Of a stretch of DNA of 64,000 bases, positions 5,637 through 57,330 are shown in pieces. Both the position numbers and the translations under genes were made by a program. This DNA is from Alphaproteobacteria bacterium (GTDB lineage Bacteria > Pseudomonadota > Alphaproteobacteria > Bin95): the NCBI GenBank assembly GCA_022825195.1, contig JAJDYL010000064.1, positions 807 to 64,806 on the forward strand, in the 5' to 3' direction. Positions within the stretch are counted from its first letter, which is position 1, and each line of letters opens with the position of its first letter. The notes under the pieces are model-generated. The model searched no databases. It worked only from the letters and a program-made list of their open reading frames with translations, and was not told the origin of the DNA.

Positions 5637-6903
5637 GCGACTCGCGCGCAGCGTCGAGCGTGTTCGCAATGTCCTCGTCGGTGTGCACCACCGAGAGGTA
5701 GAACTTGCTCTGTCCCTTGAAGACGCCGCGCGCACGCAGCCCGGCATTGAAGGCGTTGGTCTTGGCCGCGTCGGCGCGCATGGTGGCGCGGTAGTCGGAG
5801 ACCTCGCCGCCGGCGAAGATGACATCGAACATGGGCGGCGAGCCCAGCACCTGCCCCTCGTGCCCGCTCTCCTCCAGCAGCGTTTCCAGCCCGTCGATCA
5901 GCGCCTGACCGATCTGCTCGTGGCGCTCATAGACACCCGGCCGGCCCAGCACCTCCAGCGTCTTGAGCCCGGCGACGGCGGCGACGGGATTGCCGCTGAG
6001 CGTGCCGATCTGCTGCGCGAAGCGCTCGCCGTCCACGCGCCCGGCATCGAAATGGGCCATGATGTCGTCGCGCCCTGCGATGGCCGCCAGCGGATAGCCG
6101 CCGCCCACGACCTTGCCGAGCGAGCACATGTCGGGCGTCACGCCGTAGCGCTCCTGCGCGCCGCCGCGCGCGAACCGGAAGCCGGTCACGACCTCGTCGA
6201 AGATCAGCACGACCCCGGTTTCCTCCGTCACCTCGCGCAGTGCTTCGAGGAACCCGGGCTTCGGCGGGATCAGCCGCTGGAACGGCTCGGCGATGACGGC
6301 CGCCAGCTCGTCGGCATGGTCGCGGATGAGCTGCACCGCGGTTTCGGCGTCGTTGTAGGGCGCGATCAGCACCTCGTCGCGGACGGCCGCGGGAATGCCG
6401 GCGCTGTCCGGGGCCGCCTGCGGGAAGTTGCCGGGCCGCTTCGGCGCCATCGACATGAGCGCATAGTCGTTCATGCCGTGGAAACCGCCCTCGAACTTCA
6501 GGATCTTGTCGCGGCCGCGGAAGGCCCGCGCGATCCGCATGGCGTAGAAGGTGGCCTCCGTGCCGCTGGAGACGAAGCGCACCTTTTCGGCGCAGGCGAC
6601 GCGATCGATCACGGCCTCGGCCAGCCTGATGCCATGTTCGTTGTTGGCGAAGAAGGTCGTGCCGCGGCCGACCTGTTCCATTACAGCTTCGACGACCTCG
6701 GGGTGGCAGTGCCCCGCCAGCATCGGCCCGGAACCGAGCAGGTAGTCGATATATTCATTGCCGGAGACATCCCAGACATGGCTGCCCTGCCCGGAGCGGA
6801 TGACGATCTCGAACGGCACATTGCCGAAGCTGCCGGCCGGCAGCACCCGGCGCGCGGTTTCTCGCAGCGCGGATTCCTCCGCGGTGAGCACGGGTTCAGC
6901 CAT
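5620..6903 (-). CDS. Class III (PLP-dependent) aminotransferase, glutamate-1-semialdehyde aminomutase-like
   Basis: ..[28 protein letters not shown]..; 427 aa; 3' end overlaps glnS 3' end convergently by 17 nt. Confidence 0.85.
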
Positions 6904-48918: not shown

Positions 48919-48990
48919 CGCAAGCCTCCCCGGGCGCCATTCTTCTATGCGGATGCGGAAATGGGAAGGCTTCACGGCACGAGAACGGCG

Positions 48991-49017
48991 TTGACATGCC
49001 GGCGCAAGGAATACAAT
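48991..49017 (+). promoter_or_regulatory. Sigma70-like promoter TTGACA-N15-TACAAT in AT-rich spacer upstream of hypothetical/PIN pair
   Basis: cgTTGACAtgccggcgcaaggaaTACAATact; places TSS about 30 nt upstream of ATG 49056. Confidence 0.35.
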
Positions 49018-49055
49018 ACTTAGGTAAGTAAGAACTTGCAGGACCTGGCGGACCG

Positions 49056-49622
49056 ATGGCGACGAACCGGGAACGGCTGATGAAGGAAGCGGCGGCGCGC
49101 GGCAAGTATGCGCCGCTTCACAGGCATCTGCTGTCGCTCTGGCCGGAGACCGAGTGGCGGGCCGGTTTCGACGAGGTGGAGCGGGTGCTGGGCTTCCGCC
49201 TGCCCGATTCGGCGCGCCTGCACCGGCCCTGGTGGGCCAATTCCCGCAAGGGAAGCGGACACTCCCATGCGCTCGCCTGGCAGGCGGCGGGCTGGCGGAC
49301 CGCGCGGGTCGACCTGGAGGCGGAAACGCTGGTGTTCGAGAGAGAGGCGGCGGCGATGGAGACCGCGCCGCTTCGCTATGGAGGGGAAGACGAAGACATG
49401 ACCCGGCACGGGGCGGGGCTTCGGGAGGCTTCGGCAACGATGAGCCTGGCGCCGCGGCGGGCGGCGCGGCGGCCCAGGCGCGATTTCGACCTGGACCGCG
49501 ATTTCCCGCCCTGGAACGGCGGTCCCTGGCCGGAAGGCTTCACGGTAAGCCGCGAGCAGATCTATGACGATATGGGCCGGTTGACCGGCGGACCGGAGGA
49601 CGAGTCCGGGTCCGACGGCTGA
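49056..49622 (+). CDS. Hypothetical protein, candidate cognate partner/antitoxin of downstream PIN toxin
   Basis: 188 aa; N-terminal conserved-looking domain (..VLGFRLPDSARLHRPWWANS..) plus acidic/Arg-rich low-complexity C-terminal half; stop 5 nt before PIN gene start. Confidence 0.55.
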   Translation: MATNRERLMKEAAARGKYAPLHRHLLSLWPETEWRAGFDEVERVLGFRLPDSARLHRPWWANSRKGSGHSHALAWQAAGWRTARVDLEAETLVFEREAAAMETAPLRYGGEDEDMTRHGAGLREASATMSLAPRRAARRPRRDFDLDRDFPPWNGGPWPEGFTVSREQIYDDMGRLTGGPEDESGSDG

Positions 49623-49627
49623 CCCGC

Positions 49628-50062
49628 GTGTTCCTCGATACCAATCTCTTCATCCCCGCCCGGTTCGACGCGGCCCCGGCCCACGCTTTGGCAAGGGCGG
49701 CGCTGAACCGGGCCGAGCGGTCCGGCGAGGTTCTGCGCATCAGTCGCCAGGTCATGCGCGAATATCTGGCGGCCGCGACCCGACCGCAGGCATGGTCCGC
49801 TCCCTTGCCGGTGGCGACGGCGCTTGCCGACCTCTCGTGGATGGAGGAGACGTATGAGGTGCTGGAAGACGGACCGCATGTCATGGGCACGCTGGCAGGG
49901 CTCTGCCGCGAGATACCCGTCGGCGGCAGGCAGGTGCATGACGCCAACATCGTCGCCACCATGCTGGCGCATGGCGAGCGGCGCCTGCTGACCTTCAATG
50001 TCCGGGACTTCCGCCGCTTCGCCGCCCATATCGAGCTGGTGAACCCGGAACCCGCCGCATAG
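49628..50062 (+). CDS. vapC: PIN-domain ribonuclease, type II toxin VapC family
   Basis: VFLDTNLFI.. (PIN Asp1), ..QVHDANIVATMLAHGERRLLTFNVRDFRRF (C-terminal acidic residue region); GTG start; 144 aa. Confidence 0.8.
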   Translation: MFLDTNLFIPARFDAAPAHALARAALNRAERSGEVLRISRQVMREYLAAATRPQAWSAPLPVATALADLSWMEETYEVLEDGPHVMGTLAGLCREIPVGGRQVHDANIVATMLAHGERRLLTFNVRDFRRFAAHIELVNPEPAA

Positions 50063-50780
50063 GCCGGGCCGCCTGCGCGCCGCCGTTCCTCAGCCGGTCC
50101 GGCACGGCGAGGCGGCTCCAGGGGAAGGCATGGACCCGCTCCCGGCCGGGCAGCAGGACCCGCGGCGGCCGGGCGAACAGCATGCGGACCGCCGGGTCGT
50201 GGACATCGAGCCCGCCCGTATAGGCGCCGAAGGCCGGCAGCAGCAGGCGCTTCCCGTCGGTGACGAACGCCCGGCCGGAGACCTGCCGCCGCCCGGTCGA
50301 GACCGTCGCGCGCGGGTGCAGATGGCCCGCCACCTCTCCCGGCGCCGGGTGCGGATGCGGCTCATGGCGGAACAGGAGCGGTCCGGCGCGCCATTCGGCG
50401 AGCGCGCATCCGCCGAAGCCCGCCGGCGGTTCGGGGTCGTGGTTGCCGCGCAGCCAGAGCCATTCGTAGCTTCGCGCAAGCCGGTCGAGACGGTGCGCCG
50501 CCTCCCGGTCGAGACGCGCGCCCGCGTCCGGGTCGTGGAATCCGTCGCCGAGCGACACCCAGCGCGCCGGCCGGTAGTCCCTGGCCAGCGCCTCCAGGCG
50601 GTCCAGGGTCGCATGGCTGTCATAGGGCGGCAGCAGCGCGCCGCCTTCGGCCGCGAAGGCCGAGCCCTTTCCGAAATGCAGGTCGGCGACGATGAGCGTC
50701 CGCGTCTCCGGCCACCAGAGCGCGCCCGAAGGGTCGGCGGCGAGCGAGGCCCCGTTCAGCCGGAAGGAGGCCGCCGTCAA
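49995..50780 (-). CDS. pdeM: Ligase-associated DNA damage response endonuclease PdeM (calcineurin-like metallophosphoesterase)
   Basis: ..WWPETRTLIVADLHFGKGSAF.., ..LWLRGNHD..; start overlaps lhr stop by 4 nt; 3' end overlaps vapC convergently. Confidence 0.8.
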   Translation of the reverse strand: MTAASFRLNGASLAADPSGALWWPETRTLIVADLHFGKGSAFAAEGGALLPPYDSHATLDRLEALARDYRPARWVSLGDGFHDPDAGARLDREAAHRLDRLARSYEWLWLRGNHDPEPPAGFGGCALAEWRAGPLLFRHEPHPHPAPGEVAGHLHPRATVSTGRRQVSGRAFVTDGKRLLLPAFGAYTGGLDVHDPAVRMLFARPPRVLLPGRERVHAFPWSRLAVPDRLRNGGAQAARPMRRVPGSPARYGRRSGGSPGH

Positions 50781-53236
50781 AGCGGGAGTTCCGCCATGCC
50801 CGCACCGTCCATGGCTTCGGCCACGAGCTCGCTCTCGCTCTCGGCCGCCGTCTCGGCCAGCAGTTCCTCGATGGCGCCGCCATAGACGAACTCCTTGCCG
50901 ATCTCGAGCAGGACCGGCACGGCGAGCGGCGACACGCGGTCGAGGCGGCGCACTTCTATCCGGCCCCTGGCGCGGGCGAGCATCCCGCCCAGCCGGCGAA
51001 TGTCGGTCAGCCCCCTGGCGGCGTCGCGCCTCGTTGCGCGCAGCAGGAGGTGGTTGGGCTCATGCCGGCGCAGCACGTCGTAGATGAGGTCGGCGTTGAA
51101 GGTGACCTGGCGGCGGGTCTTTTCCCGCCCCGGATGGCGGCGTTCGATCAGCCCCGCCACGACCGCCACATTGCGGAAGGTCCGCCTGAGCAGGGTCGAC
51201 TCCGCCATCCAGTCTTCGAGGTCGTCGCCCAGCATGTCCTCGGAGAACAGCCCGTCCATCTCCTCGGCCTCGCGCAGGCTCCAGACCGCCAGCACATAGT
51301 CCGACGCGCAGAAGCCGAGCGGCCCGAGCCCCGCGCGCTCCATGCGCCGGGTCAGCAGCATGCCGAGCGTCTGGTGGGCGTTGCGCCCCTCGAAACAATA
51401 GGCGACGAGATACCATTTGCCGCCGCGCGGGAAGGTTTCGACCAGGAGCCCGCCCGGACGCGGCAGCACGGAGCGCCAGTCCTGCGCGCTGAGCCATTCC
51501 AGCACGTCGGGCGGGAACTCCCGCCAGCGCCGCCGGTCGGCGAGCAGGCCGCGCACCCGCTCGGCGAGATGCGTGGTCAGCGGCAGCCGCCCGCCGCCAT
51601 AGGCAGGAATGCGCGGCGCCTCGCCTGTGGCGGAAGAGGTGCGGATGGTCATGTCCCGGATGCCCTCGAAGCGCAGCATCCGGCCGGCGAACACGAAGGT
51701 GTCGCCCGGCGTCAGCGTGTTGGCGAAATACTCCTCCACCTCGCCGAGCACGCGCCCGCCGAGCCGGACCTTCAGCGTCACCGCCTCGACGATGGTGCCG
51801 ACATTCATCCGGTAGCGCCGCACCACGTCCCCGTTGGCGGCCCGCAGCCGGCCGGAGGCATCGCGCTTCAGCCGCCGGTAGCGTTCATAGGCGCCGAGCG
51901 CATAGCCCCCGGTCGCCACGAAATCGACGGTTTCCGAGAAGGTCCTGCGGGTAAGGCCGCGATAGGGATGCGCGCGGCGCACCTCGCGGAACAGCGCCTC
52001 CTCCTCGAACGGCCCGGACGCCGCAACGCCGGCTATGTGCTGGGCCAGCACATCCAGTCCGCCGGGCTCCGGCGCGTCGCCGTCGAGCGTACCCGCGCGG
52101 ATCGCGTCGATGGCGGCATGGCATTCCAGCACCTCGAAGCGGTTGGCCGGCACCAGCAGCGCCCGGCTCGGCCGGTCGAGGCGGTGGTTGGAGCGCCCGA
52201 GACGCTGTAGCAGCCGCGCCGCGCCCTTGGGCGCGCCGACCTGCACCACGAGGTCCACATCGCCCCAGTCGATGCCGAGGTCGAGCGAGGAGGTGGCCAC
52301 GACGGCCCGCAGCCGGCCCGCCGCCATCGCCGCCTCAACCTTGCGGCGCTGCTCCGGGGCGAGGCTGCCGTGATGCAGCGCAATGGCGAGGCCGTCCTCG
52401 TTGAGGTCCCAGAGCCCGCGGAAGATGAGCTCCGCCTGGGCGCGGGTGTTGACGAAGACGATGGTCGTCCGGTGGTCCCGGATGGCCGCATGGATCTCTT
52501 CCAGCGCATAAACGGCCATGTGGCCGGACCAGGGCATCGGCCCGCGCATCCTCGCAATGGCGATTTCCGGCGCGATGCCGCCCCGCCCGACCACAACCTC
52601 GACATCCGGCTCCCGTCCGGCGCTGGGCGAAAGCCAGGCGGCCAGATAGTCCCGGTCGGCGACCGTGGCGGAAAGCGCCGTCCGCCGCGCTCCGGGCGCC
52701 ATGCCGCCGAGTCGCGCCAGGCCGAGCGACAGCAGGTCGCCCCGCTTGTTGTCGGCAAGCGCGTGCAGCTCATCGACGATGACGCAGCGAAGGCTGGCGA
52801 ACAGCGCCGGGGCGTCCGGCCAGGAGAGCATCAGCGCCAGCGACTCCGGCGTGGTCATCAGCATTTGCGGCGGCTTCCGGCGCTGGCGCTCCCGCTTGCG
52901 CTGCGGCGTGTCGCCGGTGCGGGTCTCGACCCCGATATCGAGGCCCATTTCCGCGATCGGGGCCTCCAGATTGCGGTGGATATCGACGGCCAGCGCCTTC
53001 AGCGGCGAGACATAGAGCGTGTGCAGGCCGGGGCGCGGCGCCGTTGCGAGTTCGGCGATGCTCGGCAGGAAACCCGCGAGCGTCTTGCCGCCGCCGGTCG
53101 GCGCGACCAGCAGGGCCGAGCGGCCGGCGTCGGCCGCGCGCCACATCTCCAGCTGATGGGCATGGGGCCGCCAGCCGCGCGCCCGGAACCAGCCGCGGAT
53201 CGCGGCGGGTTGCGCAACCCCGATGCCTGCCTCCAT
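50777..53236 (-). CDS. lhr: Ligase-associated DNA damage response DEXH-box helicase (Lhr-like)
   Basis: ..LLVAPTGGGKTLAGFLP (motif I), ..CVIVDELHALADNKRG (DExH), ..about 820 aa; ATG 53236 has GGAAGGAAG RBS (alt ATG 53272); track ORF N-terminal 330 aa is shadow. Confidence 0.85.
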   Translation of the reverse strand: MEAGIGVAQPAAIRGWFRARGWRPHAHQLEMWRAADAGRSALLVAPTGGGKTLAGFLPSIAELATAPRPGLHTLYVSPLKALAVDIHRNLEAPIAEMGLDIGVETRTGDTPQRKRERQRRKPPQMLMTTPESLALMLSWPDAPALFASLRCVIVDELHALADNKRGDLLSLGLARLGGMAPGARRTALSATVADRDYLAAWLSPSAGREPDVEVVVGRGGIAPEIAIARMRGPMPWSGHMAVYALEEIHAAIRDHRTTIVFVNTRAQAELIFRGLWDLNEDGLAIALHHGSLAPEQRRKVEAAMAAGRLRAVVATSSLDLGIDWGDVDLVVQVGAPKGAARLLQRLGRSNHRLDRPSRALLVPANRFEVLECHAAIDAIRAGTLDGDAPEPGGLDVLAQHIAGVAASGPFEEEALFREVRRAHPYRGLTRRTFSETVDFVATGGYALGAYERYRRLKRDASGRLRAANGDVVRRYRMNVGTIVEAVTLKVRLGGRVLGEVEEYFANTLTPGDTFVFAGRMLRFEGIRDMTIRTSSATGEAPRIPAYGGGRLPLTTHLAERVRGLLADRRRWREFPPDVLEWLSAQDWRSVLPRPGGLLVETFPRGGKWYLVAYCFEGRNAHQTLGMLLTRRMERAGLGPLGFCASDYVLAVWSLREAEEMDGLFSEDMLGDDLEDWMAESTLLRRTFRNVAVVAGLIERRHPGREKTRRQVTFNADLIYDVLRRHEPNHLLLRATRRDAARGLTDIRRLGGMLARARGRIEVRRLDRVSPLAVPVLLEIGKEFVYGGAIEELLAETAAESESELVAEAMDGAGMAELPL

Positions 53237-53281
53237 GCCGCCGGCTTCCTTCCCCGGGCCCGAGGAGGCCATAGTAGCGCG

Positions 53282-54271
53282 ATGGCGGATGCGCTCGAAG
53301 ACTGGCTCCGGCCGACGCCTGCGGGCCTCTGGTGCGAGCCCGGCGGGTTCCATATCGACCCGCAGCGGGCCGTGCCGCGCGCCCTCGTCACCCACGGCCA
53401 TGCCGACCATGCGCGCCCCGGCCACGGCGCGGTGCTCGCGACCCCGGAGACGCTCGCGATCATGGCGCTGCGCTATCCGCGCGACCGCCCTGCCCGCCAG
53501 GCGCTCCGCTATGGCGAGACCGTCCGGTCGGGCGGCGTCTCCGTCCGGCTGGCGCCCGCGGGCCATGTGCTCGGCTCGGCCCAGGCGGTGCTCGAATATC
53601 GCGGGCGGCGGGTGGTCGTCTCGGGTGACTACAAGCGCACGCCCGACCCGACCTGCGCCGCCTTCGAGCCGGTGCGGGCCGATGTCTTCATCACCGAGGC
53701 GACCTTCGGCCTGCCGGTGTTCCGCCTTCCGGACGACAGGGACGAGACCGCCCGCCTGCTGCGCTCGGTCGAGACCTTCCCCGACCGCTGCCATGTCATC
53801 GGCGCCTACAGCCTCGGCAAGTGCCAGCGGATGCTGGGCCTGCTGCGCCGCGCCGGCTGCGACCGGCCGATATGGCTGCATCCGGCGCTCGACGAGATGA
53901 CGGGGCTCTATCGGCAATTCGGGGCCGACCTCGGGGAAACGCGCCCGCTCGGAGACGCCGGCGGCCTCGCCGGCGAAATCGTGCTTCATCCTCCGGGGCC
54001 GGAGCAGCGGACGGACCGCTTCGCCGACCCGGTGCGGGTGTTCGCCTCGGGCTGGATGCAGATCCGCGCCCATGCGCGCCGGCGCGGCGTCGAGTTGCCG
54101 CTCGCCATTTCCGACCATGCCGACTGGACGGGGCTCACGGCCACCATCGCCGAGACCGACGCGTCGGAGATTCGCGTGACGCACGGATCGCCCGACGCCC
54201 TGATCCGCTGGGCGCAGGGCCGGGGCCTCGACGCCCGGCCGCTCGAAGCGCCGGGCAGCCACGCCCGATGA
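53282..54271 (+). CDS. Ligase-associated DNA damage response exonuclease (MBL-fold/beta-CASP)
   Basis: ..ALVTHGHADHARPGHG.. (HxHxDH), ..VVVSGDYKRTPDP..; divergent from lhr with 45 bp (or 9 bp) between start codons. Confidence 0.85.
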   Translation: MADALEDWLRPTPAGLWCEPGGFHIDPQRAVPRALVTHGHADHARPGHGAVLATPETLAIMALRYPRDRPARQALRYGETVRSGGVSVRLAPAGHVLGSAQAVLEYRGRRVVVSGDYKRTPDPTCAAFEPVRADVFITEATFGLPVFRLPDDRDETARLLRSVETFPDRCHVIGAYSLGKCQRMLGLLRRAGCDRPIWLHPALDEMTGLYRQFGADLGETRPLGDAGGLAGEIVLHPPGPEQRTDRFADPVRVFASGWMQIRAHARRRGVELPLAISDHADWTGLTATIAETDASEIRVTHGSPDALIRWAQGRGLDARPLEAPGSHAR

Positions 54272-56280: not shown

Positions 56281-57330
56281 ATGCGCATGCCCTCTGTCGA
56301 AGCCCCGGACGCCGCCGCAATGTCTGCCCAGGCGGAGCTTCACCACCAGTATCTGCTGGGCCTCGAACTCATGGTGGCCGCGAACGAACGGCCGGAGGTC
56401 GTGGGCGAGTGGATGTGCCGCCTCTTCCGCCGGCTGCATGAGGAGAAGTTCCTTTCGAGCTTCAGGAAACTGGGGCTGGAAGGCCTGCCCGACGCCGTGG
56501 CATGCGCCCGCTATCACACGCTCTCGAATGTCATAGGCGGCGTTCCGGTCGAGTATATGGAGGAGTCCGACCGCAAGGCCTGGGTCCGCTTCCGCTATCC
56601 GCGCTGGATGTTCGACGGGCCGGCGATCTGCGGCATGCCCGTCGAGGCGGGCCGCGGTTTCCTGCTCGGCTGGTATGCGCGGAACGGCAGGGCGCTGAAC
56701 AATCCCCGGCTCGGCTTCGTCTGCGTTTCCGAGGACATGACCGGCCAATTCGGATTTTGCGGCTACTTCAAGGAATATGACCGCGATCTCGCCGACGGCG
56801 AGCGCCTGGTCTTCGCGCCCGATGAACGGCCCCCGCCCTTCGACCCCGACCGGCAGCCGGCCGCGCCCGAGGCCGACTGGAGCGAGGAGCGGCTTGCGAA
56901 GGCCAACCGGAACTATGCGGCGGAATTCATCCGCAACGGCATCCGCGAACTCGCCGCCGCCATCGGCGGGGAAAAGGCGCTGGAGTACGGCAAGCGCGCC
57001 GCGCGGCTGACCGGCCTGCAGCACTATCGCCGGATGGCCGACGCGGTAGGCGGCATCGACGGCGGGCCGAAGGACGCGGCGGACTTCCTCGCCGCCATGT
57101 TCCGGGGCATGGGCGACGGCGTGGACGCGCAGGACGCGGGGGACGGCGCCGTTTCCCTGCGCCAGACCGGGCTCAGGATCGTTCGCGGCCTCGCCGGCCC
57201 GGAGCGCGAGACCCTGCTGGCCTGCTGGATCGAGCTCTGGCAGGGCGCGGTGGCCTCGCACCGGCAATTCATGGAGGTCGAAGTCGCGCCCGACGGTGAC
57301 ACGCTGCTCTGGACGATCCGCCCGTCCTGA
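56281..57330 (+). CDS. Hypothetical protein, Cys-rich, no family recognised
   Basis: 349 aa, strong GC3 codon bias, six Cys (WMCRLF, VACARYH, AICGMPV, FVCVSEDM, FGFCGYF, LACWIEL). Confidence 0.5.
   Translation: MRMPSVEAPDAAAMSAQAELHHQYLLGLELMVAANERPEVVGEWMCRLFRRLHEEKFLSSFRKLGLEGLPDAVACARYHTLSNVIGGVPVEYMEESDRKAWVRFRYPRWMFDGPAICGMPVEAGRGFLLGWYARNGRALNNPRLGFVCVSEDMTGQFGFCGYFKEYDRDLADGERLVFAPDERPPPFDPDRQPAAPEADWSEERLAKANRNYAAEFIRNGIRELAAAIGGEKALEYGKRAARLTGLQHYRRMADAVGGIDGGPKDAADFLAAMFRGMGDGVDAQDAGDGAVSLRQTGLRIVRGLAGPERETLLACWIELWQGAVASHRQFMEVEVAPDGDTLLWTIRPS

Follow-up and report, generated by a model that had tools for sequence, protein, structure and literature searches.

A PIN-domain gene preceded by a DUF7662-domain partner as a probable VapBC-type toxin-antitoxin operon with a non-classical antitoxin

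Introduction

VapBC toxin-antitoxin (TA) systems, such as those of the TIGR00028 group in Mycobacterium tuberculosis, combine a PIN-domain toxin of about 140 amino acids (aa) with a small antitoxin, VapB, of 70-90 aa in its classical form. PIN/VapC enzymes are sequence- and structure-specific RNases. A different architecture is found in the type IV system AbiEi/AbiEii, in which the antitoxin is a large two-domain protein with an N-terminal winged-helix domain that autoregulates the operon and a C-terminal part that handles the toxin. Here, we describe a pair of genes in a stretch of 64,000 nucleotides (nt) from an Alphaproteobacteria bacterium (NCBI GenBank assembly GCA_022825195.1, contig JAJDYL010000064.1, positions 807 to 64,806 of the forward strand; this whole stretch is referred to as the window, and coordinates refer to it). 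The pair consists of a gene for a 188-aa protein, referred to as A188, and, directly downstream, a gene for a 144-aa PIN protein, referred to as PIN.

We suggest that the two genes form a genuine toxin-antitoxin cassette, in which a seemingly ordinary PIN RNase is combined with an antitoxin of a type that has not been described before. Judged from its genes, conserved pairing and promoter region, the cassette is probably a self-contained, autoregulated type II TA operon that belongs with VapBC but has a modular antitoxin of a non-classical kind. A first reading of the window, made from the sequence alone, had proposed a PIN toxin with a large partner that it could not place in any fold. Below, we refer to it as the sequence-only reading.

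Results

The A188 gene (49056..49622, plus strand) is an open reading frame (ORF) that starts with ATG and ends with TGA at 49620-49622. It is followed after 5 nt (CCCGC) by the GTG-started PIN gene (49628..50062, plus strand), the product of which begins MFLDTN. The sequence-only reading had given the same 188-aa ORF, the same 5-nt gap, the same GTG-started 144-aa PIN and a 68-bp overlap with pdeM, and all these coordinates proved correct. Because the two genes are only 5 nt apart, A188 and PIN are likely co-transcribed and translationally coupled.

The PIN protein matches the Pfam family PF01850 with 32.3 bits, above the cut-off of 23.6, and this match, together with the conserved pairing described below, bears out the earlier call of a PIN toxin with an upstream partner. 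Among NCBIfam models, TIGR00028 ("TA system VapC family ribonuclease toxin", Mtu_PIN_fam; E = 5e-14) scores best, with 52.7 bits against a curated cut-off of 73.6 bits; by these scores, the protein is a relative of the family that falls outside it. The acidic active-site residues, which the sequence-only reading had left to be checked, are all there: across 49 aligned homologues, D4, E45 and D105 never vary, and D127 is kept in at least 90%. With a family profile, the closest solved relative is VapC43 of M. tuberculosis (Protein Data Bank (PDB) entry 7vwo, E = 2.3e-8); a PDB search with the single PIN sequence gave no match. PIN, whose acidic active site is intact, is thus predicted to act as an endoribonuclease that depends on Mg2+ and, by analogy with other VapCs, would probably target tRNA or 23S rRNA. 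The only match to AbiEi_4 in the pair came from the PIN protein and lies under the cut-off (E = 0.018); A188 had none.

The partner, A188, can be placed in spite of the earlier failure to do so: residues 35-96 match Pfam DUF7662 (PF24698; 43.7 bits, cut-off 26, E = 2.3e-11), a very large family of uncharacterised proteins. DUF7662 is the sole Pfam match, and AbrB, ribbon-helix-helix (RHH), Phd/YefM and helix-turn-helix (HTH) domains, the recognised DNA-binding classes of antitoxins, were not found in A188, in agreement with the earlier impression of a partner unlike classical antitoxins. A188 likewise had no NCBIfam match, and a PDB search with its profile returned only spurious GFP-like and His-tag matches. 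At least 474 homologues were found, every one carrying PF24698, and all are named "hypothetical protein" in the sources examined.

An alignment of 75 A188 homologues divides the protein into three parts, namely a conserved N-terminal domain that contains the DUF7662 match (aa 1-96; 49056..49343), a variable linker (aa 97-140; 49344..49475) and a conserved C-terminal motif (aa 141-180; 49476..49595), all encoded on the plus strand. In the full-length AlphaFold2 model, the predicted local distance difference test score (pLDDT) lies between 85 and 94 for most of residues 11-96, with lower values of about 60 in a loop formed by residues 61-70. A model of the DUF7662 part on its own (pLDDT 82, predicted template modelling score 0.74) has the topology H-H-E-H-h-loop-H-E-E. 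The N-terminal 100 or so residues, earlier described as domain-like, are therefore predicted with confidence to fold. In a Foldseek search with this domain, the best matches were all winged-helix DNA binders, at E values of 0.3 or more and template modelling (TM) scores of 0.38-0.47, and the fold is in this sense weakly winged-helix-like. Linker residues 99-138 have pLDDT values below 50, and the tail is modelled at 65-70 as two short helices. The linker also carries a clade-specific insertion of about 30 aa that is a gap in most of the 75 homologues, which are about 157 aa long. The partner is indeed large, at 188 aa, as the sequence-only reading had pointed out, but part of this length is peculiar to the clade. 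The earlier description of the C-terminal part as low-complexity does not hold throughout: aa 97-140 are a variable, predicted disordered linker, and aa 141-180 form a strongly conserved motif.

This motif reads ...GPWPEGFTVSREQIYDDMGR... in A188, conforms to the pattern F-LDRDFPPW--GPWPEGFTVSREQIYDDMGRLTGGPE and includes SREQIY at 49548-49565. P151, G156, W158, P159, R166, D171 and G178 are invariant among the 75 homologues. Strong comparative support for a role in toxin binding comes from a plasmid collection, in which the nearest PIN homologues (26-38% identity) are from Acaryochloris, Planctomycetes K2D, Deinococcus, Planktothrix and Nostoc. Upstream of each of these five PIN genes lies a gene for a "hypothetical protein" of 81-101 aa. 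The N-terminal halves of the five short antitoxins are related neither to DUF7662 nor to each other, and a Pfam scan of three of them gave no match. By contrast, their C-termini (ISREAIYGERG, DSRESIYAGRGE, IRDSIYD, ISRESIYGDRG and ISRESIYGERG) all match VSREQIYDDMGR of A188, where the corresponding stretch is ...TVSREQIYDDMGR. Given the sequences, it is not plausible that five of five share this ending by chance. Here, we refer to it as the SRExIY tail.

Two loci separate the tail from the DUF7662 domain. In the first (L091, 1319-1926), a 58-aa ORF that comprises linker and tail only (...GPWPEGLKLTREEMYEDRC) lies directly upstream of an intact 141-aa PIN gene, and by its sequence is a minimal antitoxin version that lacks DUF7662. 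In the second (L011, 3436-5453), which is the orthologous locus of metagenome-assembled genome (MAG) OZ219786.1, an IS256/Mutator transposase (413 aa; PF00872, E = 1.6e-121) is inserted after about codon 38 of the antitoxin orthologue. Although the N-terminal domain is split, a 93-aa ORF with the SRExIY tail and the PIN gene are both intact, and the locus is a natural knock-out of the N-terminal domain that the cell tolerates. Conversely, DUF7662 proteins that lack the tail never have a PIN gene downstream (for example L059, L062, L064 and L065); the protein at the last of these loci (434-1198) is fused to a PD-(D/E)xK-like domain. Because five unrelated antitoxins share the motif and a tail-only variant stands beside an intact PIN gene, we infer that the SRExIY tail is likely the PIN-neutralising element, which also lends weight to the earlier suggestion that the C-terminal part wraps or binds the toxin. 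A188 appears to have exchanged its front half and kept its tail. On Planktothrix agardhii plasmid p2 (NZ_LR882946.1; L073, 546-1235), the pair of SRExIY antitoxin and VapC lies inside a BREX-1 system, with brxC on one side and pglX on the other.

The pairing of the two genes is conserved. Among 68 loci collected by a search with A188, with one genome per species, an intact PIN gene lies directly downstream of the A188 homologue in 50; in eight, the downstream PIN gene is truncated or frameshifted; and ten have no PIN gene, five of these without the C-terminal motif and two being small fragments. In most of the 50 intact loci, the PIN gene starts 5-25 nt after the A188 match ends. Viewed from the toxin side, a DUF7662 gene is directly upstream in four of five sampled PIN homologues (60-64% identity), and the fifth is preceded by a tail-only antitoxin. 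Thus, the antitoxin gene is found upstream on the same strand, at a short distance and in conserved association with its toxin gene, as in VapBC. The hosts belong to Alpha- and Gammaproteobacteria, Acidobacteria, Binatia, Chloroflexota, Longimicrobiales, Vicinamibacterales and other groups. Several record names indicate sponge microbiomes (Spongia_Bin9, Ca. Poriferihabitaceae), and the remaining MAG hosts are presumably of sponge origin, too; the host genomes appear to be mostly sponge-associated MAGs. The presence of the module at 50-60% identity across distant, apparently sponge-associated bacteria suggests horizontal exchange within that community. In two loci, a second module lies close by: about 500 nt downstream of the orphan DUF7662 antitoxin of L023, there is, by eye, an apparent second antitoxin-PIN pair (5925-6850), and in L089 (117-838) the DUF7662-PIN pair is directly preceded by a HigB-toxin/HTH pair. 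Both cases suggest that TA modules cluster locally.

In about nine loci, the antitoxin is intact and the PIN gene next to it is truncated or gone, whereas no locus showed the opposite with a destroyed tail; such polar decay is typical of a toxin-antitoxin pair, although the antitoxin-anchored locus set biases this count. Decay in relatives, with a truncated PIN gene in L005, the antitoxin interrupted by an insertion sequence in L011 and orphan antitoxins in L014, L023 and L052, also raises the question of whether the pair in the window is a decaying remnant, with a catalytically silent or unexpressed PIN, that is carried between the GMC oxidoreductase gene and pdeM without having a function. 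In comparisons with close relatives, the ratio of nonsynonymous to synonymous substitution rates (dN/dS) of the pair (0.20-0.42 for A188 and 0.22-0.41 for PIN) does exceed that of the flanking GMC gene (0.09-0.17). However, values of about 0.2-0.4 mean that both genes are under purifying selection. In addition, both ORFs are full-length in the window, the active-site residues are intact, and the promoter and operator-like motif described below are invariant among relatives while the flanking bases vary. We, therefore, consider a functionless remnant extremely improbable.

The sequence-only reading had assigned the pair a promoter of its own, TTGACA-N15-TACAAT, in an AT-rich spacer. Both boxes are where they were said to be (TTGACA at 48991..48996 and TACAAT at 49012-49017, plus strand), and the GC content drops to 54% at 48950-49049 compared with 65-80% on the flanks. 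The -10 region (49012..49020, plus strand) contains a second candidate, AATACT at 49015-49020, with an 18-nt spacer. A promoter scan recovered TTGACA-N18-AATACT (10 of 12 matches), with one site against 0.1 expected in shuffles. The -35 box is invariant in 11 aligned orthologous upstream regions; most of the distant loci also have TTGAC at the equivalent position, and distant loci have xATAYT 17-18 nt after TTGAC. The scan and the comparison of homologous loci favour AATACT over TACAAT. That the pair has its own promoter is, thus, supported by the scan and by conservation of TTGACA among relatives.

Directly 3' of the -10 box, at a predicted position of about -6 to +12, lies an operator-like motif, GGTAAGTAAGAACTT (49023..49037, plus strand), with the core element GGTAAGTAAGAAC at 49023-49035. 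The sequence GGTAAGTAAG is invariant in the 11 orthologous upstream regions, while the bases that flank the promoter-operator block vary. In distant phyla, xAAG-xAAG/xCAG-AGAACT(A) follows immediately after the -10 box, and one subgroup of loci has a perfect DNA palindrome, TAAGTACTTA, within the motif. Of 61 upstream regions, 23 contain AGNNAGAAC, where 0.07 would be expected with the rest of the loci as background; kinship among the loci inflates the observed count, but the motif spans phyla. The spacing from TTGAC to AGAAC clusters at 38-43 nt (20 of the 32 scorable upstream regions), whereas the distance from the motif to the start codon varies between 11 and 38 nt. Its position is, thus, set by the promoter. 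The motif is present only once in the window, and it was not found upstream of distant plasmid DUF7662 genes (Paracoccus, Deinococcus and Paraburkholderia), which makes it specific to the PIN-linked subfamily. We infer that it is the operator of the module and would be bound by the DUF7662 domain.

Two other explanations of the motif were rejected. Read as a -35 box (GAACTT) of the ECF/sigmaE type, it would place the corresponding -10 box on top of the start codon, and its distance to the ATG is not constant; as a three-frame stop signal (TAG/TAA/TAA), it would not account for the distant loci, which keep xAAG/xCAG-AGAACT without stop codons. A third explanation operates at the level of RNA: GGTAAGTAAGAAC would be a 5' leader that is recognised or cleaved by PIN or controls translation, with DUF7662 binding RNA or protein. 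The motif starts right after the -10 box and is probably mostly transcribed, its xAAG repeats, which recur every 4 nt, do not form the dyad that repressor sites usually have, PIN/VapC enzymes recognise specific RNA sequences and structures, and the fusion partners of DUF7662 include RNases (HEPN) in addition to DNases. However, the constant distance to the -35 box and the variable distance to the start codon fit a promoter-anchored DNA site better, and so does the perfect palindrome in a subset of loci. Moreover, an Rfam scan found no family above threshold and only one sub-threshold chance match inside a coding region, and there was no notable structure signal. We consider an RNA-level function improbable, if less so than a functionless remnant.

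The sequence-only reading had also proposed that the pair is an inserted module. We asked whether the pair is absent between the GMC gene and pdeM in relatives and found the site occupied by it in 16 of the 16 related genomes and contigs that cover it. The gene order AtpB-GMC-[A188-PIN]-PdeM-Lhr is kept in 13 related alphaproteobacterial MAG species and three metagenome contigs. The three contigs came from a search of metagenomes with PdeM for an empty GMC-pdeM site, which otherwise gave one short contig with a different module, described below, and no clean empty site. The synonymous divergence of the pair lies within the range of that of the flanking GMC gene, and its genes have a genome-like GC content. 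Based on kept synteny, GMC-like synonymous divergence and genome-like GC content, the pair is vertically inherited within the clade. Beyond the clade, its genomic surroundings in Alpha- and Gammaproteobacteria, Acidobacteria, Binatia, Chloroflexota, Longimicrobiales and others are unrelated, which points to earlier horizontal acquisition. In other words, the module is broadly mobile and its insertion is an old event, while the conserved synteny weakens the idea of a recent one. The PIN-pdeM junction is variable, with extra DNA in L010-L012. One short metagenome contig (LXNI01013855.1; L085, 296-2400) carries AbiEi-like and split AbiEii genes beside a pdeM whose product is 88% identical to that of the window. 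It has no DUF7662-PIN pair at the pdeM side; the AbiEi-like match is weak and does not reach the Pfam cut-off, and the contig ends before it would reach the GMC gene. TA or Abi modules may, thus, insert preferentially next to pdeM.

The DUF7662 family extends far beyond PIN-linked antitoxins. A profile search of 1.84 billion cluster representatives gave 4,959 clusters (50% identity) at E <= 1e-3, and the literature searched contained no mention of DUF7662; what it held on VapC43, on TA systems of sponges and on HEPN yielded nothing specific. Among 73 long members, 11 are fused to HEPN_Swt1; other fusion partners are TIR+HEPN, NERD, protein kinase, N6_N4 DNA methylase and DnaJ, and plasmid members are fused to HNH and GIY-YIG nucleases (examples are P0309, P0362, P0367, P0334, P0272 and P0317 as well as plasmid matches H13, H17, H19, H21 and H25-H29). 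DUF4268 is also among the partners. Four giant proteins (P0241, P0242, P0243 and P0245; 769-1314 aa) consist of 6-10 tandem DUF7662 domains, and the antitoxin family itself includes members of 245-285 aa with two tandem domains (P0016, P0023 and P0026; loci L036, L044, L046, L048 and L056). By its partners, DUF7662 looks like a nucleic-acid-recognition or sensor module of conflict systems.

These observations suggest a different way for the pair to operate, in which DUF7662 would serve mainly as a sensor or adaptor and not as an operator binder. A188 would keep PIN inactive by means of its tail until DUF7662 recognises a cue from an invader, for example a phage protein or nucleic acid that is foreign or modified, and would then release or activate PIN, resulting in abortive infection. 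This would mirror the single-chain DUF7662-HEPN, -TIR and -nuclease proteins. The fusions to defence effectors, the tandem arrays and the duplicated-domain antitoxins in A188's own family argue for it, and so do the SRExIY-antitoxin/VapC pair inside BREX and the AbiE module at the pdeM-proximal site of one relative. On the other hand, PADLOC-DB 2.0 contained no family that matched A188 or PIN at E <= 1, leaving the earlier idea of a defence-associated pair without a matching model of a known defence system. Moreover, no homologues were found in 50,697 phage records, autoregulation explains the promoter-proximal motif more simply, and the module lies among housekeeping genes and is vertically inherited in the clade. 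Sensing and autoregulation are not mutually exclusive. Taken together, we regard sensor-coupled defence as unlikely, although it is the strongest of the competing explanations. Equally doubtful is the broader version, in which DUF7662 is a widespread invader-sensing or nucleic-acid-recognition module and A188-PIN its two-component abortive-infection form that has spread horizontally among sponge symbionts; if it were true, the same domain would arm the HEPN, TIR, HNH and GIY-YIG effectors of the single-chain relatives.

Concerning the surroundings of the pair, pdeM (49995-50780, minus strand; TIGR04123, 217 bits) converges on the PIN gene, and the 3' end of PIN overlaps the sequence for the C-terminal tail of PdeM by 68 bp (49995..50062). 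The TIGR04123 model stops at residue 201 of 261, leaving a tail of about 60 aa, and in several relatives PdeM can be aligned only up to residue ~234. Because the family model ends at residue 201, the overlap touches only the non-conserved tail of PdeM. An ORF for an Lhr-like helicase comes after pdeM (50777-54262, minus strand), and a plus-strand protein in the region 49995-54271 resembles, by eye, a metallo-beta-lactamase-type exonuclease. The three genes look like a ligase-associated DNA-damage-response cluster. On the other side, the leader of the divergent GMC gene contains a 10-nt inverted repeat, AAGCCTCCCC / GGGAAGGCTT, with the arms 31 nt apart (48922-48972), which takes in the complement of the likely Shine-Dalgarno sequence of this gene. 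The block GCGGATGCGGAAATGGGAAGGCTTCAC around the repeat is kept in most close relatives, and the repeat may form a hairpin for translational control of GMC. Further downstream, ARAGORN calls a 94-nt tRNA-Arg(ACG) at 57027-57120, where the Rfam tRNA model stays below its gathering score; the adjoining tRNA-Cys and tRNA-Asn are called by ARAGORN and Rfam alike. The tRNA-Arg(ACG) may be an unusual one, or the call may be false.

Discussion

Based on these data, we suggest a model in which A188 acts on PIN and on its own promoter through separate parts. The C-terminal region (aa ~141-180, core SREQIY) would neutralise a toxic PIN; by analogy with other VapB tails, it would be disordered on its own and fold onto the active-site groove of PIN. 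The DUF7662 domain, connected by the flexible linker, is proposed to be a winged-helix-like DNA binder that would sit on GGTAAGTAAGAAC, overlapping the -10/+1 region of the TTGACA promoter, and, thus, repress the operon. The winged-helix structural neighbours and the fusions to methylase, HNH, GIY-YIG, NERD and PD-(D/E)xK-like domains speak for such a DNA-binding role.

Several observations weigh against this model or parts of it. The PIN score stays below the TIGR00028 cut-off. The structural matches of the N-terminal domain are statistically insignificant and the winged-helix assignment is, accordingly, no more than a lead. The motif has a 4-nt periodicity of xAAG repeats in place of the dyad symmetry typical of sites for dimeric HTH repressors, and part of it is transcribed, which leaves room for a role at the RNA level. 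Finally, fusions of DUF7662 to effectors that do not act on DNA (HEPN RNase, TIR, kinase and DnaJ), together with the tandem arrays, look more like a sensor or adaptor than a repressor.

The main value of the pair lies in giving a very large DUF family its first testable function and in offering the SRExIY tail as an annotation rule. For DUF7662, the testable role is that of the regulatory or DNA-binding half of a VapB-type antitoxin with a candidate operator, and its binding target, once known, could clarify the uncharacterised conflict systems in which the domain is fused to defence-type effectors. The tail is apparently a portable PIN-neutralising unit that is combined with varied front domains, and it could help to annotate pairs of "hypothetical protein" and VapC.

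Among described systems, VapBC of the M. tuberculosis TIGR00028 group is closest. Both have a PIN toxin of about 140 aa with conserved acidic residues and an antitoxin gene directly upstream in one operon; both antitoxins have an N-terminal regulatory domain and a C-terminal toxin-binding tail, here by prediction; and both operons are preceded by a sigma70-type promoter of their own and, close to it, a conserved site of the sort that autoregulation would require. By contrast, the N-terminal domain of A188 is DUF7662 and not AbrB, RHH/CopG, Phd/YefM, Xre-HTH or MerR, A188 is far longer than classical VapB even at the family norm of ~157 aa, and the PIN protein of the window, which is below the TIGR00028 cut-off, reaches VapC43 only via a profile. 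The plasmid pairs of SRExIY antitoxin and VapC from Acaryochloris, Planktothrix, Nostoc, Deinococcus and Planctomycetes K2D have the nearest PIN proteins in the plasmid collection, and their antitoxins share the ending SRE(A/S)IYG(E/D)RG or IRDSIYD with A188; however, these antitoxins are about half as long and their N-termini are unrelated to DUF7662. The single-chain fusions of DUF7662 with HEPN_Swt1, TIR, NERD, HNH, GIY-YIG, N6_N4 methylase or kinase share the front domain and link it covalently to a nucleic-acid-targeting effector, an arrangement of which the A188-PIN pair would be the non-covalent equivalent; they differ in being one polypeptide with neither SRExIY tail nor PIN domain, and they are uncharacterised. 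The likeness to AbiEi is by analogy only, as a large two-domain antitoxin: the AbiEii toxin is a nucleotidyltransferase and not a PIN protein, and there is no sequence relationship. Thus, by its toxin, its operon and, by comparison, its tail, the pair appears to work like VapBC, while the DNA-binding class of its antitoxin is none of those recognised, and we propose that it is a variant of VapBC with an antitoxin type not described before.

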